From assembly GCA_964349465.1 (NCBI GenBank), contig CAYGGC010000001.1:33428-97427 (forward strand): 64,000 bases of DNA, in the 5' to 3' direction. Positions 10,562 through 36,066 of this stretch are shown piece after piece. Under the pieces are notes generated by a model. That model was not told the origin of the DNA and ran no database searches. It saw only the letters and a program-made list of their open reading frames with translations. The DNA is from an uncultured Gammaproteobacteria bacterium (GTDB lineage Bacteria; Patescibacteriota; Patescibacteriia; SBBC01; CAIJZX01). Position numbers and translations under genes: made by a program. Within the stretch, counting starts at the first letter, position 1, and each line of letters starts with the position of its first letter.

Positions 10562-10590
10562 TTGACATTCACTATCGAAAATCGTACAAT
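10562..10590 (+). promoter_or_regulatory. Consensus sigma70-type promoter TTGACA-17-TACAAT driving the giant surface-protein gene; divergent from LCP gene
   Basis: Perfect -35/-10 hexamers with 17-bp spacer; ATG 10607 lies ~10 nt after predicted TSS (short/leaderless). Confidence 0.5.
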
Positions 10591-10606
10591 ATATTTAGCA
10601 ATTTTC

Positions 10607-22600: not shown

Positions 22601-25600
22601 ACAACACTGTCCCTCGTCGGAACGATTACCGGTGCGGGGCGATTGACCTATAAAAATAACGCCACCGCCTTCCCCGCGACTGGCACCATCTCTTCCATTC
22701 TCCGCATGGATGCGACGGCCGGTGACCAATCGATTGGCGGTACCAACTCCGCAACGCGAACATTCGGCGGGTTAGTTGAAATATATTCGAACTCTGCCGG
22801 CACGGCAAAAACAGTAACGCTGGAAAACGGGACTGCTCGAACATTTGCCTTCTCCGGTGCGCTCAATATTATTGCTGACAATACACAAGATCTGACCTTA
22901 ACGGCGGATACCGCTACTGATCCTACTGTCACGGTTACTGGCGATATTGATTTTACTGGAACCGGTGGGGGATCCGAAATTTTGGTGGCTGGTTCTGGAA
23001 CATGGACGGTATCCGGAAATGTTGATTTCACAGCTGGTACCTATACTTCTACCAGCGGAAATAAACTGGTCATGAATGGGACATCAAAAACGTTAACTTC
23101 CGCGTCGCAGGCACTGTATGACTTTGAAGTGTCGGCTGGTACGGTAGCTATTTCTGATGCCACAACTATTTCTCGCGATATGATTCTCAGTGGCGGGACA
23201 CTCACGGGCCCAAGCGGACTGACGGTGAGTGTCGGGCGTGACTGGACGAAGACGAGTGGTTCCTATACAGCAAATACTGGAACTGTTGCCTTAACAACCT
23301 CGACATCGGCAACAATTAGCGGCAGTAACACCTTCTACAATTTGTCTGTTACTGGTATCGGCGCAGCAAAAACTGTGTTAACGGTGGCGGCGACGACGCA
23401 AACCGTTACTGGCACGTGGACGGTGACGGGAGCTTCAGGGCAATTGGTAACTATTAATGCGGCTACAGCAGCACAGTGGAACGTCAACCCAACCGCTGCC
23501 AGTCTTGATTATGTTGATATTTCCTACACAAATAACCAAGGATCGACAATTTGTGCAACTCATTCACAGTCTACCAGTGGAAATAATACAGCGATCACGG
23601 TGACTGCTGGGGCGGGTTGTGGAATTACCATCTCTGGAGTCATTCGTCAAAGCTCCAATGAAACTTCGGCCTATGATTGTTCAGCCAATACGTTGACCAT
23701 CGGAGCTGTTGTGAACGGAGGAACAAGTGCGACCGCTGATTGTACACTGAATACCGGTGTCTACTCGATTAATGCCGCCAACGCGCCATCTGCGGCCGGC
23801 GATCCAATCGTGGTCTATATTAATAATGGAGAAACGCCGATAGGTACAACCGTTTCTCTGTCAGTTGATACATCTTCAAATATTACCAACCTAGATATTA
23901 TTGACGGCCGTTTAGTCACAACGTATGAAAATGCCGGACCGATGACCAACGCAAAAATGGCCACTGGTGATAACGGGAATGCTGGTATTAGGTATTCCGT
24001 GGCCACAGGAAATCTTACCGTCGAGTCTGGAATTGAATTACATGTGAAGAGTGGAAAGACGTTTACACCGGGCGGCACAGTAACGACAACCGCTACTGGT
24101 ACAACAGCTGGGCCTGCAGGTGACCTTCATATTGCTGGAACCTTAACTATGGGCACAAATGCCTTAACCGTTGGTGGTGATTACAATAATGCTGGTACGT
24201 TCAATAAAACGAATACGCAAACGACGACCTTAGCGGCAACTGGCACCGGCTTCACGATTACACCTGGAACAGGCGATATGAATAATTTGACTGTCAGTGG
24301 CGACGCCGGTGGAAATGGAACATATACATTGTCTGGCGCAAATTTGACGGTCGATGGAATTTTGAATGTTAACACTGGTGACACGTTAGCAATTGATACC
24401 AGTCGAACGCTGACAAATTCTGGCTCAACAGACGCTAGCATTAGTGGCACGATTTCTGGTGCTGGAACATTACGATTTGTGAATGGATCTGGCGGTCCAG
24501 GTACGGGCGGTACCATTTCGGTATTAACTCTATTTGATGCTTCGAGCGGTGATATTGCGTCTACAACGGTTGATGCACGCACATATAGTGCAACAGTGGA
24601 ATTGTATGCGAGCTCGTCGAGTGATCGTACAATTACACTCCCATCGTCAACAATAACGTTGTCTGGGTCTTCCTCACATCTCCACATGAAAGCTGATGGC
24701 GCCGGCGACCTCACTGTCGACGGTGCCGCAAATAATCCAACCGTAACGGTTGGTGGAGATATTGCCCTTAACGGTACTGGTGGCGGCGTTGAAGCGTGGG
24801 TGGCCGGAGATAATACGTGGACTTCGTCTGGCAACGTTGATACGGCCCAAGGCTTTTATGCTCCGCATATGGCGGTTCTCAATCCAACCTGGGATAATTA
24901 TGGCTACGAACAGGATGATTATGCTGATGATGGCTTCGGTGGTTGTGATTTCTTAGGCACAAGCTCAAATGCGGGCACAAGTTCTTCGACCTCGCTTACT
25001 CAGGGGTATACAACTGGAGCCTCAACGTCATGTTCGCCATCGGGCACTGATTTCCGCTACCGATCATATTTAAAGTTTAACCTCTCTGGTATTTCAAACA
25101 CAAACACGGTAACTCGTGCAGACCTTCAGATTCATGCTTCAGCTGCCGGTGGAGCCTTTACGGTGTATCGCTCAAATAATGATGCGCCGGATGGTGTGGC
25201 AGCGGGTAGTTTGTATGCAGTGGGCTTAAGTACTGGCTTAAATAGCGTGTATAGTTATGCCACTGGAGTCAACATGATCCCAATGGCACTTGATGGCATG
25301 GCAAATATCCAAAGTTCACTTGGAAATGCCGCCTATGCGGTTGTGCTTGATGGTAGTTCAAGCCTCTCGACTTTGACTTCAACAGATAGTGCCACCAATA
25401 AACCTAAACTTCGAGTCGGATATGTCACCACAGCAACGACTCCGACCTTAGTCATGAATGGAACTGGAACGCTCTCTGGTGGAACGCAGTCTGGTTTTTA
25501 TAACTTGACGATGTCAGGGACAAACACCTTTAACGCCTCTCATGAGGCAAATATTTACAATACTCTGACCTTGTCTGGCTCGATTACGACCAACTCCGCT

Positions 25601-27124
25601 CCGGTGGTTATGGCTGGTTCTGCTTCAACCGTTATAGGTGGGAATAATACCTTAGGCAACCTGACGGTCAGTGGCGGAACCACGACCTTGACGACGTCTG
25701 ACCTCACGACGTCGCTCAATGTGCAACTCCTAAGCAGTGGTACTCTCTCCATCGCTTCGGGCCGAACCTTCACCGCGCAAGGCAATGTGCTTTTGAACTC
25801 GGGGACAACAATCTCGGGCGCTGGGACACTGACGATGACCTCAACATCATCGGGCCCAGGAACGGCCGGGACGTTATCCTCGGTTGCGCGTTATGATGCG
25901 ACGGGTGGAAATATCGCGAACACAACCCTTGATGCGCGAACCTATGGGGGAGCGGTGGAGTTCTATAGCAATAGTGGGAGCGCACGGACTGTGACCGCGC
26001 CGAGCTCCGGTACGTTTATATTCTCCTCAAGCGTTACGACTTCAAGTGTCGGTGGCAATACCTTGACGGTCGACCTTGACGATACAACTGATCCGACGGT
26101 GACGATTGCGGGGGCGACGACCCTTGGCGCGAATACGACAATGCAAGCACCAAGCAGTACCACTCTGACGCTGAACGGGAACTATACCAACAATGGAACA
26201 TTTACTGACAACAGTGGCACGGTCGCGTTGGCCGGATCTGCTCAACAAACCCTCTCGGGGACGATGACTGGATCGTCGGACTTCAATAACTTGACGGTCA
26301 CAAACGCTTCAGGATCAAATCCGGAATCAAGTCCATCGGTCATTTTCGGTGCGGCTGCCAGCGCGGCCGGGACGTTTACCGCGACAACAGCGGATACGAA
26401 ACTTCGTTTCACCTCGAGTGCGACCTACACCTTCTTGAATGTGACAATGAATGGGCAGGCCATCGGCACACGCGTCTACTTACGGAGCTCAAGCACGGGT
26501 ACACAATGGAACCTTGTCTCGACCGGAACCCAAACTGTTTCCAATACAGACGTGCGTGATTCGAACGCGTGCGGTGGAGATACGATCGATGCGATCGATG
26601 GGACGAGTCAAGACTCAACCCATAACGATTGCTGGAACATCAATACGATTAGTATGTCGATCTCGGATACGACGATTGGCTTCGGTGCCTGCACCTCGGG
26701 ATCCGCTAGATATGCGACAGGGGATACAAATGGGGCGTCGAGCGATAGTGCGGATGCACATACTATTTCCGTCGCGACAAACGCCCGAGGTGGGTATAGC
26801 CTGACGGTCACCGGCTCAACGCTGACCGGTACCGGTGGAACGATTACGGCGCTCGGCGGTTCGGCCACGGCTTCAAGTCCCGGATCCGAACAATTCGGAG
26901 CGCGGGCGATAAAGAATAGCGGCACGGGAACGGTGAGTAGCCCGTTCGACACCGCGAACTGGGCGTTTACCCCAAGCACGACGCAAACGGTCGCCAGCTA
27001 TACCGGAGCATCATCGAGTTACTCTGCCGCCTACGGTCTGCGCTATATTTGTAACGTGGCTGGAACAACGGAAGCGGGGAGTTATTCGACTGATCTGACG
27101 TACATTCTTACGGCGACGTTCTAG
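10607..27124 (+). CDS. Giant (~5,500 aa) repeat-rich cell-surface protein: N-terminal cytoplasmic excisionase/MerR-type HTH, single TM/signal anchor, then a huge extracellular region with beta-helix-like Thr/Gly/Asn-rich repeats, a LamG domain, a DNRLRE-like domain and a C-terminal ~150-aa domain shared with the next gene (ORF track starts at TTG 10562)
   Basis: Uninterrupted 16.5-kb ORF; HTH LTIRQTAKILHVHPNTLRAWDRKGKLRAVRFG; hydrophobic APALGLFLLLLGSGWA; multiple internal repeats. Confidence 0.85.
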   Translation: MEKRKLQRFFYRFYPRRLQRRSFVVSASRRPVFSDLPKFLTIRQTAKILHVHPNTLRAWDRKGKLRAVRFGSRHDRRYLRDEVAAAWALTYGRTPIARPNFALPPLRRYAPALGLFLLLLGSGWAEFSSAATEPATVEVYAQPRECSGWVQASAATKIELSPKSDFNKFSIANSAQIRSQDLGFTTDAGAATATFDRVDPELTCAHFSLDEKLTGSLSGTTVRIFLGTNGQLNSTDALKVSWSLDGKDWALVATESVKREEQQPIVIDLPAVTDSQRLADLRVRLQPDFSLNGDSSVFVDGVRVEARLHPPEPTPSVQSAPARQKELDRLTAFSKASYESDDQPEVTVPKQQTKRRFLFGKKVETWKLKDVSLIDSKSESMSVDYRSVDQVSGDDTNARLRLRMSSQHPGKYILRITMISPTGTIEVVEKTFLWGVLAVNITRANPAVGQTQLVGIGVLDDTGRTICDASVQATVTDPKGRKTQFETRNGSLKTNPTCVDKGVTNEADYHFALTLEQAGVYRVSVTADTTVGERKIEENFITEATQPFTVERVDYPTRIFPPAEYPVRIAITPKKDYLGLVTEEIPTDFTITNIFPAGTLRTVGTTVKKQFIEWLVEWKAGQTYYLTYTFDAPDISPALFLTGPLTIGGSFIAAPDFQESRQWQIASDAISANGNFYYGDTTNAGKIKMTPFTTASTYGTEVNVNLGPAVNIMHVVAKTAPTREEKMIGYISGNPTTDGRLDIVTGTTGFEAAGDYTLRWTATSVTDGQDCDAAPTAGTCTQAFDLGYEQLSGRGLVVYAGDADASGAPDADKIYYALWDGSAWSPDTTPNTPSATNELSLPGTGATPRWIRVVPAGDNLADERSNRAVVLVADSDDDLYAYYWDGSTFDAGTELFTTLGNCASARCFDGNWQGNNTFIVNYTNSGVSEVRYQKYSVGSGWGGDTQAFTTAATPSFLFSAADPTSSRIMIANFTSGNDTRGAVWRADDATDGWTVCASGGCPDTAAEGIGGPQAGIAFERFSGEALHVFNDAANGTAQGNIYMTYTPTSTWSATSTTGITPSDDHQFTKLIPSPNSDDIMVIAGDVDCDVDATMWGGSAPSTVGSNFELLLSSSNGSCANSVPIAGMMTTGGIDFAWNIYSPWGLNWRWTGDTTTANPGSYLANENVTPTGVADATTVRLRYGFVNRGTTAQALSAEGRKKLQYTSDDPETLTATWADVDADDGAGIWRYNNCTAGTDDSAIPSAVLTAPSGGSNIVGDFIEGSGNITQTHSAGPAVAIENDYCIESNGATGSTTYYFRAFDNEQQTPVWREQDNDGANDCATAACTYPSLSTAAQTITVSGTCDAYDQTTNCADLGDIRVAVGGTLQSQLDTQGGGGPGGTDGTFSITSVPKPSANAIVTVFVDGAPATASNRAVAITKYDGSGSISGLQLFKEHLTIGSADTAATLTSAELGSYDNSVSSSDADVFHDYNGSTTFTVDSTGFSTQEELYIGSGWTYRPDSGGGDTLTTTSIEIAAGTLTLDSNTFNVGGSFDNDGVLTASTSTTNFTAASGTNTIDADGTAAEAFYNVVFNDSAGSATYQLTTVFDADNNVTITGGNFDANSNAVTVGGSWDNDDTFTSGTQTTTFNAPSGTKTIDADGTGADSFSSIVFNDAAGSAVFQLTTAMDVNVDLTITGGNLQAQGNQINIGGVFDNDDTYTHGNNLIVFDATSGTKSMDTDGTGTEALYDVTFNDGGGSATFEFSQALDIDHNVTITGGTFSRTGSFTVGGSWDNDDYFFGDGVNNITFDATSGTVAIDARGNYVEFSQADFSMRVVLNDGGGSAVFQMTTDAIISNGLAITGGELQAQGHYIDLWDGIFDNDDTFTHGNGTIYLEASSGTNIHDFDGTGTDALYNLQIDDGGGTATHQLSTLLDVDNNLTIVGGTLNANSQAITVGGNWDNDDTFTSGTATVTFDASDTDNTIDADGTGTDTFSSVTFAGGDGSGTWTLTTAMDVTVAMNVDTSDILSIDSGMTLSLNRTTTAQSLTLNGTIQGAGRLTYQLPTSVATFPTTGTISSILRFDATTDVQTVPERTYGGNVELYEATGGCASRTFTLATTAGQTLNFSGDLSLIEGNCGGVPVAGNTNNPIVNITGNLTQNASTNSSSITGGTQTWTVSGSIDLQDGAASSSITNLTLNGTTKTIAVVGSLDVTGTLTIDGSYTVTASATSNLYVSGTLIVNTGKTLAINSGQSFLCGGTVTLTGTAQISGAGTLTVASSSLGTGGTLSSIVRFDVSGGDVTMPNRTYGGAVEVFMDDSATAAHKVIMAGGTQTLQSSLYVIDNSNTYNLTLDASNGGANNPTVTVTGDVDFTGTGTGSEALITGTGTWTVGGNIDFTGGTFTATSGNTMEMTGASKTITTAGSALHHLTVSAGSVTASGATTLNGNMLISGGSFAGPAAAFNVAGNWTNSGGTYVEGTGTVTLNGATSTTLNSGCSNTDSCANNNFYNLEINKTDAADGNDNVTLDTNGINVANTLTITDGELVQGALNVRAEGATAVSIVSTGKWSNISTGDIKLGGTATNNGTWLLDVGGNSDGCGGGDTDDITLTTTDGATQRSLAGSGTFTWYDVSVSYMNATVAITVNGGTNVSNNAGSFTFNACGITITGTIYSNSGGEASAVYNCSSDNLTIHTSISGGTSSNGTCTAVGGTFSIVTNGPPSSAGDPIVLWIDSVETPKATTVTLAADTSSNISGLNLIQDRLILTHENGGPMTNAKLSTGDNGNAGIRYAVSGSNLTVESGMELHVASTKAYTPGGMVTTTASASPSSAAGDVHVVGTMTMGTYALSVGGDLTNGGTLSLSSGQTTTMTATGSGFTITAGGASFQGLTFNGASGGWTNSGALTVSEIWTGTAGGFTQANSTTITVNGTAFSLANGFTWTKATSGANLILENATNLDFTDSNTTKQDLGAVQIGASPGVTTLKSDMSATTVTIPTSDTLNTKGWDITASGAFDCQGTCTLNLTDTAPNNETDGTIIDVGGDFTMSSSATFTSYSNSTVYLNSTSGTDSNRTFTTGGKAYNNVELKNAGATNDDITISGTPFDINGTLTLTDGQVRLDTNDPNVTLNGNLSINANATVTKADNGTATWTFDGATSPTTWTDGTGSGGQDIGLAIISGTTKTVNLASSAKATKLTIAASQVFGLGSSGYTFTLTGSGFTPNHPLQNSGTLNEGTNSTVKFTGTSDSDIDPEAFHHLEISPSGAGSPTFTFDVAETANPTTVAGNMTIGDSTNAVSVQLGTFSELTVDGNITISTNGTLLGSTDVGLNLGGSYTNNGTFTDAGNGINFTATTTGKTIAGNLTGSNKFFAIFSGSGGEWTNTSAAEFTDLAMLDGTLAGSNNITVNGGTTGTAGIINRSGGTFTLNPASTSSFGPSTASTSWTFNNLTFTTTAGSQITTTVTTCSTCTFTVNGAMSVDAKVTLTIASSSWTVVGSLTTTTTGAIAYTGTPTVTVQGTALGGGTGNIYFYNLTKSGAGTTTWSGTGVNAVRNTLTLSAGTLVAPSNTLYVNTFTESGGAFTHNSGTVMFNTEANQTLTASSTFNNVTFNDGLVGWWNLDETAGTSAADSSGYGHTGTHTNTPTISTDVPTVNFANSRSLDFNGTTQYVDLGTAPFINTEFADKITLSAWAKPANLTNSGTIIGKSFDTNHSSPFYHWNLFQTGSQICFRVGSTNICSATSTLTTSWQLITGVYDGSNMYLYRNGTQVATTAKTGNVGNGLQSARIAGRDTPGAGLSEYFAGKIDDVRIYRRALSSGEVTTLSNGDEWGLTGATWTLGADLTLAGTLGIKTGTLDTHVTNNRSITVGSSWLNDGGVFTARAGTVTMNAGSSGKTITAGQQSFYLLNLNNASGGWTMSEVYTTPTITVSNNMVITAGTLTSLAGTLSVGGDFNNAGTFTHNSGTVTMTGSSKNITGGSATTFNNLTISGTTGVDAAGSDATVASQLTVDNTKTLTINSGRTVTLSGTSGTTLSLVGTITGAGRLTYKNNATAFPATGTISSILRMDATAGDQSIGGTNSATRTFGGLVEIYSNSAGTAKTVTLENGTARTFAFSGALNIIADNTQDLTLTADTATDPTVTVTGDIDFTGTGGGSEILVAGSGTWTVSGNVDFTAGTYTSTSGNKLVMNGTSKTLTSASQALYDFEVSAGTVAISDATTISRDMILSGGTLTGPSGLTVSVGRDWTKTSGSYTANTGTVALTTSTSATISGSNTFYNLSVTGIGAAKTVLTVAATTQTVTGTWTVTGASGQLVTINAATAAQWNVNPTAASLDYVDISYTNNQGSTICATHSQSTSGNNTAITVTAGAGCGITISGVIRQSSNETSAYDCSANTLTIGAVVNGGTSATADCTLNTGVYSINAANAPSAAGDPIVVYINNGETPIGTTVSLSVDTSSNITNLDIIDGRLVTTYENAGPMTNAKMATGDNGNAGIRYSVATGNLTVESGIELHVKSGKTFTPGGTVTTTATGTTAGPAGDLHIAGTLTMGTNALTVGGDYNNAGTFNKTNTQTTTLAATGTGFTITPGTGDMNNLTVSGDAGGNGTYTLSGANLTVDGILNVNTGDTLAIDTSRTLTNSGSTDASISGTISGAGTLRFVNGSGGPGTGGTISVLTLFDASSGDIASTTVDARTYSATVELYASSSSDRTITLPSSTITLSGSSSHLHMKADGAGDLTVDGAANNPTVTVGGDIALNGTGGGVEAWVAGDNTWTSSGNVDTAQGFYAPHMAVLNPTWDNYGYEQDDYADDGFGGCDFLGTSSNAGTSSSTSLTQGYTTGASTSCSPSGTDFRYRSYLKFNLSGISNTNTVTRADLQIHASAAGGAFTVYRSNNDAPDGVAAGSLYAVGLSTGLNSVYSYATGVNMIPMALDGMANIQSSLGNAAYAVVLDGSSSLSTLTSTDSATNKPKLRVGYVTTATTPTLVMNGTGTLSGGTQSGFYNLTMSGTNTFNASHEANIYNTLTLSGSITTNSAPVVMAGSASTVIGGNNTLGNLTVSGGTTTLTTSDLTTSLNVQLLSSGTLSIASGRTFTAQGNVLLNSGTTISGAGTLTMTSTSSGPGTAGTLSSVARYDATGGNIANTTLDARTYGGAVEFYSNSGSARTVTAPSSGTFIFSSSVTTSSVGGNTLTVDLDDTTDPTVTIAGATTLGANTTMQAPSSTTLTLNGNYTNNGTFTDNSGTVALAGSAQQTLSGTMTGSSDFNNLTVTNASGSNPESSPSVIFGAAASAAGTFTATTADTKLRFTSSATYTFLNVTMNGQAIGTRVYLRSSSTGTQWNLVSTGTQTVSNTDVRDSNACGGDTIDAIDGTSQDSTHNDCWNINTISMSISDTTIGFGACTSGSARYATGDTNGASSDSADAHTISVATNARGGYSLTVTGSTLTGTGGTITALGGSATASSPGSEQFGARAIKNSGTGTVSSPFDTANWAFTPSTTQTVASYTGASSSYSAAYGLRYICNVAGTTEAGSYSTDLTYILTATF
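10730..10880 (+). other. Excisionase/MerR-type helix-turn-helix DNA-binding domain at N-terminus of the giant protein (cytoplasmic side of the TM segment)
   Basis: Motif …LTIRQTAKILHVHPNTLRAWDRKGKLRAVRFGSRHDRRYLRDEV… matches the HTH_17/excisionase family pattern. Confidence 0.55.
18515..19010 (+). repeat. Intragenic duplicated segment, copy 1 (~165 aa, NACGITITGTIYSNSGG…TTTASAS); ~65% aa identity to copy 2 at 23607-24100; GC ~52%
   Basis: Direct comparison of translated segments; third-position G/C rich. Confidence 0.6.
21330..21985 (+). other. LamG (concanavalin A-like lectin) domain within giant protein
   Basis: LVGWWNLDETAGTSAADSSGYGHTGT…LDFNGTTQYVDLG…ITLSAWAKP…WQLITGVYDGSNMYLYRNG…FAGKIDDVRIYRRALSSGEV matches the LamG family pattern. 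Confidence 0.65.
23607..24100 (+). repeat. Intragenic duplicated segment, copy 2 (GAGCGITISGVIRQSSNE…TTTATGT); GC ~45%, A/T-rich third positions, unlike copy 1
   Basis: Same amino-acid block encoded with different codon preference. Confidence 0.6.
24900..25440 (+). other. DNRLRE-like carbohydrate-binding-type domain within giant protein
   Basis: …FRYRSYLKFNLSGISNTNTVTRADLQIHASAAGG…KPKLRVGYV pattern. Confidence 0.4.
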
Positions 27125-27193: not shown

Positions 27194-27264
27194 ACATACA
27201 TATCAACATATCCCCTAAAGGCTGGGGATTTAAAAACCCATATTTTTAGCCAAAAAACACACTC

Positions 27265-28347
27265 ATGATACACCTTATGAACAAGTCCCAACGACGCGCA
27301 ATTTCGATAATTGCGATGTTTGCAGTTCTGTTTGGTGCAAATTTCGGCTTTGTAGGCATCGCGAACGCCGCAACGGTGACGAGCTTTAAAGACGTCCAAA
27401 CGACGCTCGTTGATTCGGCTAATTCAAACCACACCATTTCATGGGTTTCTCCGAGTGGGGTAGCAAACGCGTCGACAATTGTCCTCACTTTTGCGACAGG
27501 CTTCAGTTTAACTGGGGTGATTGAAAACGATATCGACATTGCCGGTTCAACGGAGGGAGAACTAACGACCGCAGCTGATTGTACCGGCGCTGAAAATGCT
27601 GGCGTCGTTCCATCAGGACAAACAATCACGATTACACTGTGTACTGGTGATGGTGGAGACTTTACAAACTCGGAGACCATTACGGTCGAAATCGGGACGA
27701 ACGCAACCGCGTCGGGGACTGGCGCGAACCAAATTAATAACCAAACGGAAGCGCAAAACAACTCTGATCCAAAAATTACCTTGACCTCGGGTGCCAGCGA
27801 TACTGGAAGCTTGTCGGTCGAAGTGATTGCCGATGATAGCGTGAACGTAACGGCGACGGTTGATCCTTCGATTACCTTTTCTATTTCTGACACAACGATT
27901 GGTTTTGGAACGTTGACCACTGGTGCGGCTCGATACGCCAACGGCGCAGCGAGTGGCTCAGCCTCGGTTACCCCCGCTCATACGTTAACAGCTGGTACGA
28001 ATGCGGCGTCTGGGGTGGCGGTTACGTACAATGGTGCGTTGTTAACGAGTGCCAGCAATAACATTGATGCGGCCTCGATCACGGGCGATGCGGATGGTAC
28101 ACCAGGGACCGAACAGTTTGCAATTAGTTTTGATGATAACGGTTCGGCCTTCACAATGGTCAGCGCCTACGATGAAGCTTCGAATAACTCGACTTTCGTC
28201 GCCAGCACAACGACAACCATCTTCTCCACGACCGCGCCGGTTGCTTCCACGGCCGTTGATGCACACTATCTCAGCAACATTGCCGCAAACACTCCGGCTG
28301 GTAGCTATTCAACAGATATTACCTATATTGCGACCGGTACGTTCTAA
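27265..28347 (+). CDS. Secreted 360-aa protein; signal peptide; C-terminal ~150 aa homologous to the C-terminus of the giant protein (…DTTIGFG…ARYA…AGSYSTDITYIATGTF), possibly WxL-like
   Basis: N-terminal signal (AMFAVLFGANFGFVGIANA); clear alignment of C-terminal domains of the two proteins. Confidence 0.8.
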   Translation: MIHLMNKSQRRAISIIAMFAVLFGANFGFVGIANAATVTSFKDVQTTLVDSANSNHTISWVSPSGVANASTIVLTFATGFSLTGVIENDIDIAGSTEGELTTAADCTGAENAGVVPSGQTITITLCTGDGGDFTNSETITVEIGTNATASGTGANQINNQTEAQNNSDPKITLTSGASDTGSLSVEVIADDSVNVTATVDPSITFSISDTTIGFGTLTTGAARYANGAASGSASVTPAHTLTAGTNAASGVAVTYNGALLTSASNNIDAASITGDADGTPGTEQFAISFDDNGSAFTMVSAYDEASNNSTFVASTTTTIFSTTAPVASTAVDAHYLSNIAANTPAGSYSTDITYIATGTF

Positions 28348-28386
28348 TCGGTCGATCTTTCATCCGACATTTTAACGCCAAACGCC

Positions 28387-29391
28387 ATGCGCCAACGCAC
28401 TGCTCTCCTCGTCTCGCTCAGTGTGTTCCTCGCCGGCGTTTTTGGTGTTGGTTCGGCTCAGGCGCTAACGCTTGTTCCCCCGAGTCTTGAATACACATCA
28501 GCGAAGGGTCAGGTTATTGAGTCACGCGTCAAATTATTGAACAATGAAAATCGGACGCTGGTTTTGACACCCTCCACCGCCAATTTCGGCGCGAAAGATG
28601 AAACTGGCGAACCGGATTTTAAGTTTGACGCGCCTTCAGCTGATCTCTCAGCTTGGATCCAGATTGATAAAGCGCAATTAACACTTGATCCGGGTGAAAC
28701 AAAAGAAGTCCCGTTTACGATCGCCGTTCCGACCGACGCTGAACCAGGTGGTCATTACGCTGGGATTTTTTTCGCCAGCGGTGGCACGGCCACTGGTGGT
28801 GGACAAATCGGGGTTCAGTCGAAGCTCGGGACCCTTGTCATTTTGACGGTTGACGGGAATATTCGTGAACAAGCGGCCATTAGCTCGGTTAAACTTGACG
28901 GTCCTTCAAGCTTGAGCCGTCCTCCAGTCAACCTGAATGTACGAATTAAGAACAGCGGTAACGTTCATGTGAAACCAAAAGGCAAGGTCACTATTTTAAA
29001 TATGTTTGGTGGGGAAGTTGAAACGATTACCCTCCCGCAGGACAAGAATGTGTTGCCGGGCCAAACACGTCTCTTTGAAGTGTCTTGGGCGAAACGTTCG
29101 ACCGAGGCGAAGAAAGGAAATTTCTTCCAAGAAATTGGCGCTGAATTCTCTAACTTCGCACTTGGAACATACACGGCAAACGTTGAAGCAACCTATGGGC
29201 AAAACGATAAAACGATGATTGGGAAGGTCCAATTCGTGATTATCCCATGGCACGCTCTATTAGTTCTGTTCTTGGGCTTAGTGCTGATCATCATCGTCTT
29301 TACGGTTGGTCTCAAATCCTACAATCAAATGGTGATTCGCAAGGCGCAGGCCGCGATGACCAAATCGACGCCGCCGGAAATAAAGAAATAA
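28387..29391 (+). CDS. Cell-surface protein with signal peptide and C-terminal TM anchor + short basic tail; architecture resembles DUF916/DUF3324 (CscA-like) proteins of WxL loci
   Basis: Signal peptide, beta-rich ectodomain, C-terminal helix IIPWHALLVLFLGLVLIIIVFTVGL then KSYNQMVIRKAQ…. Confidence 0.75.
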   Translation: MRQRTALLVSLSVFLAGVFGVGSAQALTLVPPSLEYTSAKGQVIESRVKLLNNENRTLVLTPSTANFGAKDETGEPDFKFDAPSADLSAWIQIDKAQLTLDPGETKEVPFTIAVPTDAEPGGHYAGIFFASGGTATGGGQIGVQSKLGTLVILTVDGNIREQAAISSVKLDGPSSLSRPPVNLNVRIKNSGNVHVKPKGKVTILNMFGGEVETITLPQDKNVLPGQTRLFEVSWAKRSTEAKKGNFFQEIGAEFSNFALGTYTANVEATYGQNDKTMIGKVQFVIIPWHALLVLFLGLVLIIIVFTVGLKSYNQMVIRKAQAAMTKSTPPEIKK

Positions 29392-29397
29392 ATATCG

Positions 29398-30252
29398 ATG
29401 GGGTGGAGATCGTTAACGATCCGTGGGGCGCTGATCTTAATCAGCGTTTTTACGATTTTTTCCTGGCCGAGTGACGCCAAGGCATTTGATGTTACAGTGA
29501 CGGCGACGGTTGTTGATGAAAGTTCGACGCCCCCGGCAAATCCGGTTGTTGAGTTTAAGGGCGTGGCAGCGCCACGAGGTGTGGTGTCGGTGGCGCGAAA
29601 TGGTGTAGTGATTATGACAAGTCCAACCGGCGATTCGGCAGCGTTTGATATTGTAATCGCCGATCAACCAGTAGGTCAGCAGATCTACGATATTACGGCG
29701 GTTGACAATGATGGGCGGTCGTTAACGCCGATGACCTTTGCACTAAATCTCAGCCTTGGTTCAACGACGATTATTCTCGGAATTTTTCTCGGGCCATCCA
29801 TCACGATTGATAAACCGGAAGTGAAGTTGGGCGAAACCGTAACCGTGGCCGGTGCGACGTTGCCGAACAGTACGGTGACCGTGACGGTGAATTCAGTCCA
29901 GGTCAAAAACTATAGTTTTTTGGCCGACGCGAATGGTCGGTGGCAGAAAGATATCAATACCGCCGATATTGGAGTTGGTAGTCATACCGCGAAGGCGCAA
30001 GCGACGATGTCTGGAACTGGCGTATCGGAATTTAGTTCGAGCGTCGCGTTCGCGGTCAACCCCCTCGGACAATGCGATGCAAAAAAAAGTTCCGATTTGA
30101 ACTGTGACGGACGGGTGAACTTAACGGACTTTAGTATCTTGTTATTCTTCTGGCAGCAGCGAAATCCGGCGAATGCTCGGGCTGACGTTAACGCCGATAG
30201 CCGGGTGACCATCGTTGATTTTAGTATCATGTTGTTCCAATGGACCGGATAA
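29398..30252 (+). CDS. Secreted Ig-like protein with C-terminal type-I dockerin module (two Ca-binding repeats)
   Basis: DLNCDGRVNLTDFSILLFFW and DVNADSRVTIVDFSIMLFQW = canonical DxNxDGxVNxxD dockerin repeats. Confidence 0.8.
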   Translation: MGWRSLTIRGALILISVFTIFSWPSDAKAFDVTVTATVVDESSTPPANPVVEFKGVAAPRGVVSVARNGVVIMTSPTGDSAAFDIVIADQPVGQQIYDITAVDNDGRSLTPMTFALNLSLGSTTIILGIFLGPSITIDKPEVKLGETVTVAGATLPNSTVTVTVNSVQVKNYSFLADANGRWQKDINTADIGVGSHTAKAQATMSGTGVSEFSSSVAFAVNPLGQCDAKKSSDLNCDGRVNLTDFSILLFFWQQRNPANARADVNADSRVTIVDFSIMLFQWTG

Positions 30253-31358
30253 TTCTTCGTGGAGCTATACTCGGACTGGCGCTGTTTGTGCTTCAGGTTC
30301 CAGCTGTTCGTGCAGTTGGACCAGCGGTTCGGTTAGTTGGACCATCTGGACAAGTTGAAGCTGGAACTATCTGGCCAGTTGAGGTCCGAGTTGATACCGC
30401 CGGCCTGAATATCAACGCAGCAGAGATTCATTTGTCGGTCATCGGGGTGGGCACGGAAATTACTCGCTTGGGTCGCGAATCATCGATTTTAACGCTCTGG
30501 CCAGAAGTCCCGAGTATCAATGCCGCGACAGCCAAATTTGTTGGTGGGCGACCAGGCGGGGTCGTCGCCGTCGACGCGCTCGTCGGAACGATGTTTGTTG
30601 TTGCTCGCCAGGCCGGTCCGGTGACGATCAACCTGAACTCGGTCACGAGTGGATTGTACCGGCACGATGGTAACGGTACGCGCGTCCAAACTGAGCCTGC
30701 TAGCCTTGAGGTGCAAGTGGCGGACGATCTGGTGCCGGCGTTAGCAATTACCTCGACGACCCATCCAACCGAATCGACCTGGGGCCGAGTTGGGGAAATT
30801 GATGTCGCGTGGGAAGCGTTGCCAGACGAGCAGTTTAGTTACCGACTTTCTAATGATATTGGGGTAGTTCCAGACGATGACATCGATAGCGGTCTCGTTC
30901 CGTTGCGGTTTGATGGACTCGACGATGGGGTCTGGTACTTCGTGATCAAACGCCGCTTACCTGGAGAACCATGGTCATCGGTTTTTCAACGACGCTTCCT
31001 ACTTGATCGAACTCCGCCGGAACCGTTCACTGTTCGTCAACCAGCTTCAAAAACAGTTGCCGGCCGCGCCCTCCTGACTTGGACCGCCTTGGACCGGACC
31101 GCTGGCGTGACGGCCTATCAGGCTACGGTCAACGGACGCGTGGTTGGGGAAGTTGTTAGTCCGTTGGCCCTTCATCCAGATTGGCGTGGTCAGACAATTC
31201 AGATCGTGGCGATCGATGCGGCCGGAAATCAGCGCCTGAGCGAGCCGTGGTTGTACGGGAAACGCCAAGTGGCTATGCCGTGGTGGGCTTGGACCGTGAT
31301 TGGTGTAGTTTTTCTGGGACTCGTCTTCGAGGTCGGTCGCGTAGTCCGACGTCGTTAG
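30240..31358 (+). CDS. Cohesin-domain protein paralog 1: signal peptide, cohesin-like N-domain, Fn3-like middle domain, C-terminal TM anchor
   Basis: Cohesin-like N-domain (…LVGPSGQVEAGTIWPVEVRVDTAGLNINAAEIHLSV…); DRTPPEPFTV; C-terminal TM WWAWTVIGVVFLGLVF. Confidence 0.75.
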   Translation: MDRIILRGAILGLALFVLQVPAVRAVGPAVRLVGPSGQVEAGTIWPVEVRVDTAGLNINAAEIHLSVIGVGTEITRLGRESSILTLWPEVPSINAATAKFVGGRPGGVVAVDALVGTMFVVARQAGPVTINLNSVTSGLYRHDGNGTRVQTEPASLEVQVADDLVPALAITSTTHPTESTWGRVGEIDVAWEALPDEQFSYRLSNDIGVVPDDDIDSGLVPLRFDGLDDGVWYFVIKRRLPGEPWSSVFQRRFLLDRTPPEPFTVRQPASKTVAGRALLTWTALDRTAGVTAYQATVNGRVVGEVVSPLALHPDWRGQTIQIVAIDAAGNQRLSEPWLYGKRQVAMPWWAWTVIGVVFLGLVFEVGRVVRRR

Positions 31359-31383
31359 CTATTTTGTGGTATACTCATAGCCT

Positions 31384-32769
31384 ATGGAGGCGCGTCGAGG
31401 CATGGTTTATCGAGCGGTCGCCTGGCGCAGCGGAGTCATCGTTAGCGCCATGCTCTGGTGCTTTTTTGCGAACACGCACTCAGCGCATGCTGCCGCCTCA
31501 TTAAAAATTACCCCCGCCTCAGGGACGTACGAGGTGGGAGCGTTGGTTGACGTTTCCTTCTTACTTGATACGGGCGGAGATGCCGTGAACGCGGTTCAGG
31601 CCGACATTCAATTTCCGGCCGATAAGTTACAGGTTGTGAATCCAGTCGCGAGCACCTCGTTTATTTCCGTCTGGGTCACAACGCCGACCTATTCGAATAC
31701 TGACGGGACTTTAAAGTTTCAGGGCGGCTTACCAAGTCCAGGGATTAAAACGAGCGGTGGTGTTATTAGTACCGTTTCATTTCGTGTGAAGGCGGCGGGT
31801 CGTGCGACGATTACGTTCGCATCCACCTCAAAAGTTTTACGGAACGATGGTGAGGGAACAAATATTCTTAGTTCAACCGGGACGGCGGATTTTACCTTGA
31901 AAGTCCCGCCGCCTGAGGGTCCGGTGGTAAAAAGCCCAACCCATGGTGATCTCAATCGTTGGTACAATTCCCCCCAAGTCCAGTTTGTGTGGGACTCGGT
32001 CGACGGTGCGAGTGGCTACAGTTATTCCTTCGATCAGAACGCGAAAGTAACCCCTGACGAAACGATTGAAGGAATAACAGCGGCCACCAGCATGAAGGCG
32101 ACTGGGGATGGTGTATGGTTTTTTCATATCCGAGCGAAGACGGACACCTGGGGCGGAACGACGAGTTTTCCGGTCCAAATCGATACGACCCCGCCGGCCA
32201 GTTTTACGCCCACGTTTGATCATGACCTGATTACCATCGAAGATGTTGGGACCCTGCGGTTTGTTACGACCGACGGCGCTTCAGGTCTTGATTACTATGA
32301 AGTAAAGCAGGTCACCTTGACCGGGGATGCGGCGACAAATAGTTTGTTTGTGGAATCGAGCAGTCCTTACGTTATCCCAAAACTGGGAGCAGGAAAATAT
32401 GAATTTATCGTGCGTGCATTCGACCGCGCCGGAAATACAACCGAAGGCAAGGGGCAGCTGGAAGTTATTGCTAGCGGCGTGCCCTTCTATGCCCGAGTTC
32501 CGATCCTGCGCGACCCAGCGGTGGCAAACGGGGCGCTTGTTGTCCTGGGATCGCTCTTTGTCGGGGCCGCTTCGATGCTGGTCCTTCGGCGGGTCCGTGT
32601 CCGTTCAACCTTCCAGCATGATTTTGAGCGGCTCGAACGAGACGCGCATCGAAAGGCTGAGCAACTGCAACGCGAACTTGAACAGCTGCGTTCGGCCCAG
32701 CGACTGGTGCAGAGTGATCTTGGGCCCGACCCCGGACTATCTCCTCAGCCTCATCAGCCGCCACGATGA
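31384..32769 (+). CDS. Cohesin-domain protein paralog 2 (cohesin + Fn3-like + TM + coiled-coil/Pro-rich cytoplasmic tail)
   Basis: ASLKITPASGTYEVGALVDVSFLLDTGGDAVNAVQADIQFPADKLQVV cohesin signature; paralogous to neighbours. Confidence 0.8.
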   Translation: MEARRGMVYRAVAWRSGVIVSAMLWCFFANTHSAHAAASLKITPASGTYEVGALVDVSFLLDTGGDAVNAVQADIQFPADKLQVVNPVASTSFISVWVTTPTYSNTDGTLKFQGGLPSPGIKTSGGVISTVSFRVKAAGRATITFASTSKVLRNDGEGTNILSSTGTADFTLKVPPPEGPVVKSPTHGDLNRWYNSPQVQFVWDSVDGASGYSYSFDQNAKVTPDETIEGITAATSMKATGDGVWFFHIRAKTDTWGGTTSFPVQIDTTPPASFTPTFDHDLITIEDVGTLRFVTTDGASGLDYYEVKQVTLTGDAATNSLFVESSSPYVIPKLGAGKYEFIVRAFDRAGNTTEGKGQLEVIASGVPFYARVPILRDPAVANGALVVLGSLFVGAASMLVLRRVRVRSTFQHDFERLERDAHRKAEQLQRELEQLRSAQRLVQSDLGPDPGLSPQPHQPPR

Positions 32770-34421
32770 AATATTTTTTTACCATCCTTATCAGCGTATT
32801 TGCGAGTCTACTGACGACGTCGTTTGCTTCGGCCGCGACGCTGTCACTCAGTCCGGCATCGACTACGACACAGGTCGGCCAAACGGTTGTGACGACTGTG
32901 CGCGTGAACGCGGCTGGGACGACGATCAACGCGGCTGAGGCGACAATTTCTTTTCCGTCGGATCTGTTGAAGTTGGTTAGCGTGAGTAAGTCGGGCACGA
33001 TCTTTAAGTTTTGGACCGTTGAACCGAGCGGCTCGAATAGTTCTGCGCGGGTCATTTTTTCTGGTGGTTTGCCGAGTCCAGGCTATTCCGGCAGCGCTGG
33101 GACGATTGTCAAAGTTACGTGGCAGGCCTTAGCAGTGGGAACAGCAAACATCTCCGTGACTGGCGGGAAAGTGTTGGCGAATGATGGGCTAGGCACGAAT
33201 GTTCTCACCGGACAGTCTGGTGCGTCATACACGATTCAAGCAACCACGACGATCCCAACCAAGCCGACTGGTCCGGTTGCGCCAGCATTGAGTTCGCCGC
33301 AGTTTTCTAGTCAGCAGCAGTGGTACGCCGAAAAAAATGCCACTATTACGTGGACCCGACCGACCGGCATTGAAGGGGTAAGTTATGAATTGAATCGTGA
33401 GTCTACCACGGTGCCAGACGAGACGTTTGAAAATAATTCCGGCAGTACAACAGTAGAGTTAACCGAAGATGGGGCTTGGTATTTTCATCTGCGAGCGAAA
33501 TACGCGACGGGCTGGAGCAGTGTTGCTCGATTAAAGCTACAGCGCGATACGACGCCGCCGGAACCGTTTGAGATTTCGGTTGAACGAGATCGTGGCTTAG
33601 CTGACCCGAGCCCGACGCTCTCGTTTGCCGCGACGGATGGATTGAGCGGTATTGTTGGGTATACCGCGGCGGTCAATGGATTGCCCGGGGTGCCGGTGAC
33701 GAGTCCGTATACAATGACGGTTGAGCAGGCTGGTGAATACCACGTGGTCATCACCGCCACTGATGGCGCTGGCAACTCCCGGGCGAGCGATGTGACGTTT
33801 TCGGTTGAAGGGTATGCGGTTCCGAAAATAACATATGTTTCCACGCCCCTTATCCTTCTGCAGACCCTGACCGTCCGTGGTACGGCTCAGGCTGGGGATC
33901 AGGTCAATATCTTTCTCGATGGCGAATTACTGGACTCAACCTACGCCGGTGCCCCCAATGTCGCGGCAACTGATGGTACCAACGTACGGCTGACCTGGAA
34001 TTTTACATCTGAAAAAACATTTAGCCCTGGTAAACATCGTTTAACCGTTACTGCTACCGGTGCCGACGGGCAAACAAGCTTGGCGAGCGATCCAGTAACT
34101 TTTTTCGTTCGTGGCACAACACTTGAGTTTAACGGACGCCCGATTGCGACCTTTGCGGCGATACCGATTCTTGGTATCGCGATGATTCTGTTTTTCACCT
34201 TGATCGCCTTTGTGATGAGCCAGCTCTGGATGACCACTCGTCGACTTGAGCGCCGGGAAAAGGTTGTTGACCAGGAACTTCAGGAGCTTCGGACGGCGGT
34301 AGAAAAAGGTCATGTTCCAGACACAGCGCTGAAACAGGCGATCACCATGATTGACGATGATCTCGTTGGGCGTCGACGGACTCCGAAGCGCGCACCGCGA
34401 CGGCGTACAAAAAAAACATGA
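32766..34421 (+). CDS. Cohesin-domain protein paralog 3 (cohesin + Fn3-like + Ig-like + TM + basic tail)
   Basis: ATLSLSPASTTTQVGQTVVTTVRVNAAGTTINAAEATISFPSDLLKLVSV cohesin signature; 4-bp overlap with paralog 2. Confidence 0.8.
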   Translation: MKYFFTILISVFASLLTTSFASAATLSLSPASTTTQVGQTVVTTVRVNAAGTTINAAEATISFPSDLLKLVSVSKSGTIFKFWTVEPSGSNSSARVIFSGGLPSPGYSGSAGTIVKVTWQALAVGTANISVTGGKVLANDGLGTNVLTGQSGASYTIQATTTIPTKPTGPVAPALSSPQFSSQQQWYAEKNATITWTRPTGIEGVSYELNRESTTVPDETFENNSGSTTVELTEDGAWYFHLRAKYATGWSSVARLKLQRDTTPPEPFEISVERDRGLADPSPTLSFAATDGLSGIVGYTAAVNGLPGVPVTSPYTMTVEQAGEYHVVITATDGAGNSRASDVTFSVEGYAVPKITYVSTPLILLQTLTVRGTAQAGDQVNIFLDGELLDSTYAGAPNVAATDGTNVRLTWNFTSEKTFSPGKHRLTVTATGADGQTSLASDPVTFFVRGTTLEFNGRPIATFAAIPILGIAMILFFTLIAFVMSQLWMTTRRLERREKVVDQELQELRTAVEKGHVPDTALKQAITMIDDDLVGRRRTPKRAPRRRTKKT

Positions 34422-35122
34422 ACACCTCGTCAAATGTGTGGCTGGTTATTCCGACCTATAATGAGCGGTCGAACCTTGAGGCGCTTGTCCGGCGGATTAC
34501 CACCGCTGGCTCATGGAATATTCTGATTGTTGACGATGCGTCGCCGGACGGGACGGGCGCGTTGGCTGATGATTTGTCACAACGTTGGCCGCAGTTGGCT
34601 GTCCTCCATCGACCGAAGAAGGAAGGACTTGGCCCGGCCTATCGGCATGGCCTACGTGAAGCGCTTGATCGAGGGGCAGAGCTCGTGATTCAGAGCGACG
34701 CGGACTTATCGCATCCACCGGAACTGATTCCGACGATGATTGAGCGCCTTCAGACGACTGATCTCGTTATTGCCTCACGATATGTGGCGGGCGGTCGAAT
34801 GAATATTGGTTGGCAGCGGCGCTGGATTAGTTTGATTGGGAACGTCTACATTCGATTCATGCTGGGTTGGTCGGTTCGAGACTGGAGTACTGGGTTTAAG
34901 GGTTGGCAGGCGGGGATGCTCGATCAGGTTCTGAAAGCGCCATTACGAACCTCCGGCTATGCTTGCTTAATGGAGATGACGTGGTGGGCAAGAAAGTTCG
35001 GTGGGCGAGTCGCCGAGGTACCGCTTGATTTTGTTGATCGGACAGCCGGCGACTCAAAATTTTCCATCCGTATTATTCTTGAGGATATCAAGATGGCCTG
35101 GGAATTGCGTTGGCGACGGTAA
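34418..35122 (+). CDS. GT2 polyprenyl-phosphate mannosyltransferase (Dpm1-like dolichol-/undecaprenyl-phosphate mannose synthase)
   Basis: LVIPTYNERSNL…IVDDASPDGT…QSDADLSHPP motifs; translationally coupled to cohesin paralog 3. Confidence 0.9.
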   Translation: MNTSSNVWLVIPTYNERSNLEALVRRITTAGSWNILIVDDASPDGTGALADDLSQRWPQLAVLHRPKKEGLGPAYRHGLREALDRGAELVIQSDADLSHPPELIPTMIERLQTTDLVIASRYVAGGRMNIGWQRRWISLIGNVYIRFMLGWSVRDWSTGFKGWQAGMLDQVLKAPLRTSGYACLMEMTWWARKFGGRVAEVPLDFVDRTAGDSKFSIRIILEDIKMAWELRWRR

Positions 35123-35125
35123 GAC

Positions 35126-35154
35126 TTGCCAAGCGGACAAAAAACTGGTATACT
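35126..35154 (+). promoter_or_regulatory. Promoter TTGCCA-17-TATACT upstream of tRNA-Val
   Basis: Hexamers with 17-bp spacer ~110 bp upstream of tRNA. Confidence 0.4.
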
Positions 35155-35265
35155 GTTCCTGTTCTTGCGCAAGATTAGCCAAAAACATTGGGTCCAGAAC
35201 CCAATCGAAGAGGCTCATAAAATCTGCGGAGCCGGAGCAGGCCTCGCGCTGTGTCCATCGGACTA

Positions 35266-35342
35266 GGTCGCATAGCTCAGTTGGTTAGAGCGTTCCGTTC
35301 ACATCGGAAAGGTCCCTGGTCCGAGTCCAGGTGCGACCACCA
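35266..35342 (+). tRNA. tRNA-Val (anticodon CAC), CCA encoded
   Basis: Manual cloverleaf: acceptor GGTCGCA/TGCGACC, D-arm GCTC…GAGC, anticodon stem TTCCG/CGGAA loop TTCACAT, T-arm CCTGG-TCCGAGT-CCAGG, discriminator A, CCA. Confidence 0.9.
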
Positions 35343-35353
35343 GAAAAATTCTC

Positions 35354-36055: not shown

Positions 36056-36066
36056 TCTCTATTTGT

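Follow-up and report, generated by a model that had tools for sequence, protein, structure and literature searches.

In a 64,000-nt stretch of bacterial DNA (contig CAYGGC010000001.1; hereafter the window, in whose numbering all coordinates are given), four consecutive genes between positions 29398 and 34421 encode one dockerin-bearing protein and three membrane-anchored cohesin proteins. An earlier note on this DNA had taken the set for a free-standing modular surface-display system; it is instead the distal part of a conserved cassette for a pilus of the Pam type, a filament reported in 2026 from the Saccharimonadia bacterium Candidatus Mycosynbacter amalyticus (preprint, bioRxiv 10.64898/2026.03.03.709456). 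In the published system, filaments grow by donor-strand exchange without an usher. The tip is PamT, a subunit with only an acceptor domain; the PapD-like chaperones PamC and PamD each carry a transmembrane (TM) helix at the C-terminus; and PamR, a 32.8 kDa protein that combines an N-terminal strand with two FnIII domains and a TM helix, is proposed to stop elongation and to act as the tether. Cohesin and dockerin are never mentioned in that preprint (bioRxiv 10.64898/2026.03.03.709456). The reading favored here, with a little more confidence than doubt, is that the four genes constitute the cell-proximal module of a Pam-type, donor-strand-assembled pilus in a Candidatus Kerfeldbacteria-like Patescibacterium, and that a dockerin–cohesin pair serves as its tether. 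The modules and the cassette themselves, as described below, are assigned with high confidence.

The dockerin and cohesin domains are genuine. The dockerin protein (284 aa, 29398..30252; this and all genes described below lie on the forward strand) starts with a signal peptide and a donor-like strand (29485-29523), continues with two Ig-like stalk domains (~29545-30060) and closes with a dockerin (30073-30249). Its C-terminal end consists of two near-symmetric repeats, DLNCDGRVNLTDFSILLFFW and DVNADSRVTIVDFSIMLFQW, whose calcium loops at residues 233-244 (DLNCDGRVNLTD; 30094-30129) and 263-274 (DVNADSRVTIVD; 30184-30219) follow the two-repeat EF-hand-like pattern with D/N at positions 1, 3, 5, 9, and 12. 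Pfam Dockerin_1 (PF00404) matches residues 232-278 with 35.8 bits against a cut-off of 22.9, and a precomputed match to this family is present in nearly all members of the dockerin protein family. A profile made from 45 orthologs finds seven solved dockerins (4fl4_A, 2y3n_B, 1daq_A, 2mte_A, 4cj0_A, 1clc_A, and 5nrm_B) at E 1.8e-6 to 1.9e-3 with both repeats aligned, and a dockerin hidden Markov model (HMM) built without the window sequence matches the window protein at 3.7e-37. Among 83 orthologous modules, the first and second loops carry D at position 1 (83 and 82 modules), N at position 3 (80 and 83), D at position 5 (82 and 74), N or D at position 9 (83 and 76), and D at position 12 (83 and 83). 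Pfam, the solved-dockerin profile and loop conservation are thus in agreement with the earlier note, according to which two dockerin calcium-binding repeats close this open reading frame (ORF). Two cysteines at aa 226 and 236 (30073-30105; GQCDAKK...DLNCDG) flank the start of the first calcium loop. Across orthologs both are present in 35 modules, neither in 40, the second only in 8 and the first only in 0; this co-occurrence suggests a disulfide clasp on the dockerin, with a count blurred by trimming at the edge of the HMM.

Apart from the dockerin, the protein carries Ig-like stalk domains only, and no enzyme or recognizable ligand-binding domain was found on it. AlphaFold2 models the two Ig-like domains with predicted local distance difference test (pLDDT) scores >90, and the Foldseek matches of the model are exclusively tandem-Ig adhesin stalks (Bap, SiiE, ice adhesin). 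The window protein has neither an acceptor domain nor a TM helix, and a TM-like segment occurs in 0 of 84 dockerin proteins. Searches of the 64 kb in six frames with the family HMM and with a calcium-loop regular expression revealed no further dockerin. A giant protein and a 1,887-aa protein encoded in the window had been proposed as additional cargo; since the six-frame searches found no other dockerin, neither carries one, the window holds exactly one, and a dockerin-mediated cargo role for these two proteins is rejected.

The three genes downstream encode cohesin paralogs of 372, 461, and 551 aa. In the first (30240..31358) the cohesin spans ~aa 31-154 (~30330-30701) and Fn3/Ig-like domains lead from it to a TM helix (31281-31337), after which comes a short basic tail. 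In the second (31384..32769), two Fn3/Ig-like domains separate the cohesin (aa 38-173, 31495-31902) from the TM helix (32530-32586), and the cytoplasmic part is a long charged helix. In the third (32766..34421), at least three Ig-like domains lie between the cohesin (~aa 26-160, ~32841-33245) and the TM helix (34152-34217), and the cytoplasmic tail is long and basic; long charged cytoplasmic helices are present in both the second and the third paralog. By BLASTP, the 461-aa and 551-aa proteins match each other at 4e-55 (34% identity) and the 372-aa protein matches the other two at 2e-19 and 3e-24. Homology extends from the N-domain through a second domain, whose end is marked by D(T/R)TPP(E/A)(P/S)F, into another Ig-like domain, and each paralog ends in a TM helix followed by a basic tail. 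The proline-rich Fn3-like module, C-terminal TM helix and basic tail that had been described for these proteins are therefore borne out by the junction motif, the Ig-like domain and the TM helix seen in all three. The four ORFs had been given correctly: an independent assembly yields identical gene calls for the dockerin gene and the three cohesin genes. The dockerin gene and the 372-aa gene overlap by 13 nt, the 372-aa and 461-aa genes are separated by 25 nt, and the 461-aa and 551-aa genes overlap by 4 nt, so that the 4-bp overlap once attributed to two of the three pairs applies to this last pair only.

The cohesin assignment draws on several methods. Pfam Cohesin (PF00963, cut-off 24.1) matches the 461-aa protein with 27.1 bits and the 551-aa protein with 25.6 bits, the latter also matching Big_13; no Pfam family matches the 372-aa paralog, and the positional ortholog of this paralog in a related locus (L003) gives a weak Pfam Cohesin match. 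A non-circular cohesin-domain HMM, built from relatives only and without any window sequence, recovers all three (4e-73 for the 461-aa, 4.6e-30 for the 551-aa, and 1.2e-8 for the 372-aa protein) and nothing else in the window. AlphaFold2 models the 461-aa protein from a 52-sequence alignment at pLDDT 87; a signal helix precedes a β-sandwich (residues 38-173), and two more β domains lead to a long helix (378-445) made up of the TM segment and its cytoplasmic extension. The best Foldseek match of this model is the cohesin–FnIII double module of Clostridium perfringens GH84C (2w1n, E 1.2e-10), and the single-domain matches, among those listed, are all cohesins, solved with dockerin or alone, with TM scores of 0.65-0.74 normalized to the target. 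The fold is the nine-stranded flattened β-sandwich of cohesins, which is distinct from generic Ig/Fn3, and the invariant cohesin core residues are kept in all three paralogs. Used as a single query against PDB sequences, the 461-aa protein retrieved no cohesin, and a profile search gave only a marginal one (5g5d, E 0.033); therefore, the assignment rests on Pfam and fold. NCBIfam gave no family for the cohesin proteins. The earlier note had seen cohesin-type N-domains in all three genes and had allowed that they might prove to be generic Ig domains; they are not, because Pfam (for two of them), the non-circular HMM (for all three) and Foldseek point to cohesin.

Upstream of the dockerin gene lie the genes that connect the set to a pilus. 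The 360-aa pilin of the Pam type (27265..28347), the candidate shaft subunit, comprises an N-domain, a donor linker (27838-27870) and an acceptor C-terminal domain (CTD) from 27871. It matches NCBIfam NF058581 (CPR_Pam_pilin_C, "Pam pilus system pilin subunit") with 59.7 bits against a cut-off of 55. The same model scores 64.7 bits, against the same cut-off of 55, on the last ~130 residues of a giant ORF of 5,520 aa (10562..27124; true start uncertain), a candidate pilus tip adhesin. An acceptor-domain HMM built from other loci only matches the pilin at 5e-40 and the giant protein, on aa 5365-5520, at 1.7e-28. The acceptor CTD of the giant protein thus makes up its last ~155 aa (~26648-27121), with no donor strand ahead of it. 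The giant protein is probably linked to the dockerin set through this C-terminal acceptor domain and the pilin chain, not through a dockerin. At its N-terminus (10562-10990), the giant ORF contains an excisionase/MerR-type helix-turn-helix, in frame and uninterrupted by a stop codon (HTH; core 10727-10801; Pfam HTH_17, 34.6 bits against a cut-off of 27) and then a TM/signal-like segment (10931-10987). In an unrelated locus (L087), a separate 66-aa HTH_17 gene (14663-14863) directly precedes another giant surface-protein gene; because the order is repeated there, the association of an HTH with giant adhesin genes may be conserved, the HTH being perhaps a regulator or a cleaved N-terminal fragment.

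In the pilin, the sequence SVNVTATVDPS (aa 192-202) stands immediately before the acceptor domain, which begins ITFSISDTTIGFG; in the giant protein, the acceptor domain ISMSISDTTIGFG is preceded by HNDCWNINT where the pilin has its strand. From its position and the published architecture, the linker strand of the pilin would be the donated strand. The mature N-terminus of the dockerin protein, FDVTVTATVVDES, bears the same VNVTATV-type motif as the pilin. Formulated as [VI]x[VI][ST]A[TSAV][VI], the donor motif occurs at a background frequency of 1e-5 per residue across other ORFs (778,330 residues). It is found in 46 of 66 pilins within 33 residues around the start of the acceptor domain, in none of 12 giant proteins in the region before the CTD, in 0 of 92 T proteins (the protein family encoded between pilin and dockerin protein, see below) and in 2 of 199 cohesin proteins. 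In the N-terminal region of dockerin proteins, the strict motif is present in 38 of 82, and a looser pattern in 49 of 82 against 4.1 expected. No cassette protein joins the donor motif to a TM helix. In the AlphaFold2 model of the dockerin protein, no secondary structure is assigned to residues 22-49 (pLDDT ~60-66 for residues 21-40). In short pilins of other lineages (~210 aa), the same strand directly follows the signal peptide.

The ancestry of the dockerin protein is most apparent from its longer relatives. In long dockerin proteins of ~440-460 aa from Kerfeldbacteria-like loci, the N-terminal domain is homologous to the N-domain of the pilin of the very same locus (E 1e-20 to 7e-44, the latter value being that of locus L011), and in another long form the N-domain is of a different kind, shared with one pilin that bears an acceptor (E 4e-9 to 3e-11). 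Because their N-domains are homologous to those of pilins, the long dockerin proteins appear to be pilins in which the acceptor domain has been swapped for an Ig-Ig-dockerin segment. The putative strand and the dockerin are the parts that dockerin proteins always keep. A minimal dockerin protein of 155 aa (L090:11118-11585) is made up of a signal peptide, the donor-like strand GDVIITAQVGV, a Gly-rich linker and a dockerin, and has no Ig domains. As read from the sequences, the subunit pattern is that of an acceptor-only giant protein, a pilin with both donor and acceptor, and a dockerin protein with a donor-like strand only, followed by a spacer and the dockerin. The dockerin protein had been regarded as a generic ligand; the donor motif, together with the pilin N-domain in the long forms, indicates instead that it is probably a pilin-derived, donor-only pilus subunit.

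Between the pilin and dockerin genes lies the gene of what we term the T protein (334 aa, 28387..29391), which has a signal peptide, ~270 β-rich residues forming two β-sandwich domains, and a C-terminal TM helix (29254-29313). The best solved relative of its family profile is EfmWxLIP1 (9i1y/9i25, E 1.3e-4); Pfam WxLIP_PGBD is found in 11 of 21 members and PapD_N, weakly, in 1 of 21, and NCBIfam assigns the T protein to no family. For WxLIP proteins, built of two Ig-like domains plus a TM helix, the prediction is that they insert a β-hairpin into their partner (PMC10599100). Cassettes contain one or two T genes, to be compared with PamC and PamD of the published system. We infer that the T protein may be the counterpart of PamC/PamD, a chaperone anchored in the membrane.

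Hundreds of homologs were found for the 461-aa and dockerin proteins; those of Candidatus Kerfeldbacteria are closest (57-79% identity), and many others belong to other Patescibacteria. A scan with one genome per species counted at least 574 genomes that encode a relative of the dockerin protein; nearly all are from Patescibacteria, with labels that include Kerfeld-, Parcu-, Komeili-, Uhr-, Giovannoni-, Nealson-, and Zambryskiibacteria, Paceibacterota and others. Eighty-two loci were classified with HMMs for five elements, two from the cohesin proteins (cohesin domain and middle region) and the others being the dockerin, the acceptor domain of the pilin and the T protein. A cohesin gene lies directly 3′ of the dockerin gene in all 76 loci with enough downstream sequence, far beyond chance; a T gene lies directly 5′ of it in 63 of 77, and the order pilin, T, dockerin gene is observed in 47 of 60. 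Runs of cohesin genes have a length of 1 in one locus, 2 in 29, 3 in 21, 4 in four and 5 in two, and the ~390-aa class to which the 372-aa paralog belongs is found only in first place after the dockerin gene (37/37), with longer forms next. Among loci seeded with distant pilins, five of six also hold dockerin and cohesin genes, one of them in a complete Candidatus Nomurabacteria genome. The conserved cassette consists of the giant gene, one or more pilins, one or two WxLIP-like TM proteins, the dockerin protein and one to five, usually two or three, cohesin-TM proteins; it can be considered a conserved unit because the flanking genes vary between lineages. In two loci (L086:15722-17890 and L088:8977-11133), the cohesin genes are followed by a 371-aa acceptor-domain protein without the strict donor motif and by another T gene, a second pair that may represent an alternative tip or a second pilus type on the same anchor. 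Many TPA assemblies with this cassette are titled "uncultured Gammaproteobacteria bacterium" (L005, L007, L012-L014, L018, L019, L021, and others) and some short cassette contigs Pirellulales, Aminicenantia or FCPU426; these records are probably mislabelled or mis-binned.

The proposed mechanism would proceed as follows. All components would be exported by Sec, and the membrane-anchored T protein would cap the acceptor grooves. The giant adhesin would go in first, at the tip, and the shaft would form as pilins add by donor-strand exchange. Next, the N-terminal strand of the dockerin protein would enter the groove of the last pilin, and polymerization would end there since the dockerin protein has no groove of its own. 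Finally, the calcium-dependent dockerin would plug into the cohesin domains of the three single-pass membrane paralogs, which project on Ig/Fn3 stalks, and the pilus would thereby be tethered to the cell non-covalently. Dockerin protein and cohesin-TM proteins would together be a two-piece equivalent of PamR, an adaptor and a socket. That the dockerin does bind the adjacent cohesins as an anchor is considered slightly better than an even chance.

This arrangement and the Pam system share an acceptor-only tip, one or two membrane-anchored two-domain proteins encoded beside the pilins, the lack of an usher and a restriction to Patescibacteria. Despite this relatedness, several differences exist. 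A single-protein tether of the PamR type was not found in the cassette: at the C-terminus of the donor-only subunit a dockerin takes the place of the TM helix, and TM helices reside on two to five separate cohesin proteins encoded after this subunit. The tip would be a giant protein of thousands of residues (~5,500) plus an acceptor domain in place of the small PamT. The lineages also differ, Kerfeldbacteria and other Parcubacteria-type groups here, Saccharimonadia and Microgenomatia for published Pam. The likeness of the T protein to PamC and PamD is one of architecture and position, compared by description, whereas its detectable relatives are WxLIP proteins, with one weak PapD_N match. To the WxL/WxLIP clusters of Firmicutes (PMC10599100) the T protein is akin in its two Ig-like domains, its C-terminal TM helix and a weak sequence similarity, and the β-hairpin insertion predicted for WxLIP resembles the strand complementation proposed for PamC/PamD; in contrast to those clusters, the window encodes no WxL-domain proteins, and the partner here would be the pilin acceptor domains. 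Chaperone-usher pili (Pap/Fim) likewise place the tip adhesin first, build a shaft of subunits that both donate and accept, and end growth with a donor-only last subunit (PapH), but here there is neither an outer-membrane usher nor a periplasm, the chaperone candidates are membrane-anchored, and the putative terminator has a docking module.

The model also mirrors the anchoring scaffoldins that hold cellulosomes. In those systems (type II/III cohesin–dockerin pairs; for example Clostridium thermocellum SdbA/OlpB, Ruminococcus flavefaciens ScaE), however, anchoring employs S-layer homology (SLH) domains or a sortase signal, while here there is a C-terminal TM helix and the tethered object would be a pilus rather than an enzyme complex; tandem-cohesin scaffoldins, dockerin-bearing enzymes and carbohydrate-binding modules are all missing. 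A cellulosome was considered and rejected: each cohesin protein has a single cohesin, the only dockerin in the 64 kb sits on a non-enzymatic Ig-repeat protein, and no glycoside hydrolase was found among 23 window proteins scanned. The description of the set as non-cellulosomal accordingly stands. The known non-cellulosomal pairs, those of the C. perfringens GH84C/GH33 toxin complexes and the cohesin of Archaeoglobus fulgidus, join secreted glycoside hydrolases or have no known partner, whereas the present pair lies in a pilus operon and its cohesin proteins are integral to the membrane. SEML1_0315, an essential "dockerin" protein of the cultivated Saccharibacterium Southlakia (PMC10633639), is not a member of this cassette, because it is a stand-alone protein of 927 aa with unrelated neighbors.

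Several observations weigh against the tethered-pilus reading. AlphaFold2 renders the dockerin region (residues 226-284) at pLDDT 55-76 with strands instead of the dockerin fold, and Foldseek retrieves no dockerin with this model. The strict donor motif is present in only 38 of the 82 dockerin proteins, the others having looser variants or none. The chaperone role of the T protein is drawn from a weak WxLIP match (E 1.3e-4) and from architecture, and the Pam models of NCBIfam give no match to it at E up to 1. An uncleaved N-terminal TM segment would anchor the giant protein in the membrane and complicate its role as tip. Some dockerin/cohesin loci lack HMM-detectable pilin or T genes, and, conversely, the pilin-seeded locus L087 (9001-14317) has two pilin-type and three T-type genes and no dockerin or cohesin gene within 9 kb, so that this Pam-like locus must use another tether or none. 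Lastly, the model leaves unexplained why two to five distinct, anciently diverged cohesin paralogs are kept in fixed order for a single dockerin.

The last point suits an assembly platform, a multi-component machine, better than redundant anchors, since the paralogs are non-equivalent and their order, with the ~390-aa class first, is fixed. The cohesin-TM proteins would then recruit the dockerin transiently beside the T chaperones, in the manner of an usher without an outer membrane, and would position a terminator or an initiator; either a different component would provide the final tether, or the cell would lose its pili. Through the long charged helices that two paralogs extend into the cytoplasm, such a platform could be coupled to cytoplasmic factors, and published Pam pili "appear easily untethered". 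The cassette, however, offers no other anchor candidate and no protein that has both a donor strand and a TM helix. Characterized cohesin–dockerin pairs are of high affinity and long-lived, a character that fits tethering, and the platform is regarded as unlikely. A stronger doubt attaches to the view of the earlier note, that membrane cohesins present dockerin cargo and are functionally separate from the adjoining pilus genes. It is true that both modules are present and adjacent and that ~15 loci with long dockerin proteins lack HMM-detectable pilin or T genes. These exceptional loci nevertheless have a giant ORF and mid-size ORFs upstream; the single dockerin in 64 kb sits on Ig-like stalks with no enzyme; the donor motif, and in long forms the whole N-domain, is common to dockerin proteins and pilins; and the pilin/T/dockerin order is kept across lineages whose flanks differ. 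All this makes a separate display system improbable.

It can further be asked whether the two modules bind each other. Many non-cellulosomal cohesin-like and dockerin-like modules are without a known partner, and the failure of AlphaFold2 to reproduce a dockerin fold would be consistent with a calcium-stabilized structural cap, the cohesin-like domains binding the S-layer, peptidoglycan or a pilin instead. Against this, the adjacency in 76 of 76 loci and the overlapping stop and start codons argue for a co-evolving pair, the calcium loops and helix positions are under strong purifying selection, the dockerin repeats are almost symmetric, as in dockerins with a dual binding mode, and the invariant cohesin core residues are retained in all three paralogs; the probability left to the absence of mutual binding is accordingly small. 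Least probable of all is a filament of the opposite orientation, in which the giant protein would be cell-proximal, held by its N-terminal TM segment, and the dockerin would cap the free end and bind the cohesins of another cell, kin or host, or a host glycan. The cytoplasmic-type HTH followed by a TM segment at the start of the giant ORF would accord with it, and in work on a cultivated Saccharibacterium the authors speculated about host glycans as the targets of dockerin-domain proteins (PMC10633639). Yet the TM segment ends in a plausible signal-peptidase site, GSGWA/EF, as judged from the residues; assembly by membrane-anchored chaperones would, as in the Pam model, leave the last-added donor-only subunit beside the membrane; and the cohesin genes belong to the same operon, adjacent to the dockerin gene in every one of the 76 loci, and encode proteins anchored in the membrane of the same cell.

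Several neighboring features deserve mention. The 551-aa cohesin gene overlaps by 4 nt a downstream gene (34418..35122) for a family-2 glycosyltransferase (Pfam Glycos_transf_2, 1.6e-27) of the polyprenyl-phosphate sugar synthase type, with ArnC/AglJ/PpgS-like NCBIfam matches. The gene is syntenic in Kerfeldbacteria (L001) and absent from the cassette of other lineages, and its membership is loose. Because the published pilin PamA bears an O-linked sugar on Ser356 (bioRxiv 10.64898/2026.03.03.709456), the enzyme might feed pilus glycosylation as an accessory that supplies a lipid-linked donor. A signal peptidase I gene (35354-36055) lies just 3′ of the cassette, as it does in L001, and every cassette protein has a cleavable-looking signal peptide. 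The stop codon of the pilin gene lies within a terminator-like hairpin (28331-28354), and the 140-nt gap 5′ of this gene contains the best promoter-like site (27165-27193; 10/12, extended TG). Both would fit over-expression of the shaft pilin relative to the downstream genes, a weak hint given that promoter and terminator scans over 26900-36200 lie at the shuffle background (8 vs 7.2 and 13 vs 12.5). Further downstream (38662-44810), the 1,887-aa protein has a T4SS-pilin-like/Mbov_0395 pilin-like N-terminal segment and no dockerin; its gene overlaps by 4 nt the next one, which encodes a 162-aa protein with bacterial thrombospondin type-3 (calcium-binding) repeats. This region, syntenic in L001 and unrelated to the dockerin, looks like part of another system, the T4SS-like surface apparatus of Patescibacteria.

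In the full-text literature, no paper was found that links cohesin–dockerin to the surface systems of Patescibacteria or to donor-strand pili, and existing labels are automatic ones only ("cohesin domain-containing protein", "dockerin type I repeat-containing protein"). If the tethered-pilus reading is true, this would be the first function of a cohesin–dockerin pair in pilus biogenesis and anchoring, and a second, modular way to hold a pilus without sortase linkage or an outer-membrane usher, in a filament ending in a multi-thousand-residue adhesin. Some cohesin–dockerin pairs are among the most force-resistant non-covalent bonds known, a property that would suit a tether under load. The model gives non-cellulosomal cohesin–dockerin pairs a concrete role, the predicted interface could be disrupted to detach pili, and the strand-linker-dockerin protein constitutes a natural minimal construct. 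Patescibacteria represent a large share of bacterial diversity and most are thought to be host-attached, yet almost nothing is known of how they build and hold attachment organelles, and the Pam pilus was structurally described only in 2026 and in one lineage. The locus suggests that a far wider range of lineages, as gauged by the at least 574 species genomes with dockerin relatives, builds a related pilus with a giant adhesin tip. It also suggests that these lineages have borrowed the cohesin–dockerin plug and socket, so far associated mainly with cellulosomes and a few toxin complexes; that the pair was recruited across hundreds of Patescibacteria species as the membrane socket of a donor-strand-exchange pilus is, in our estimate, an evenly balanced proposition.

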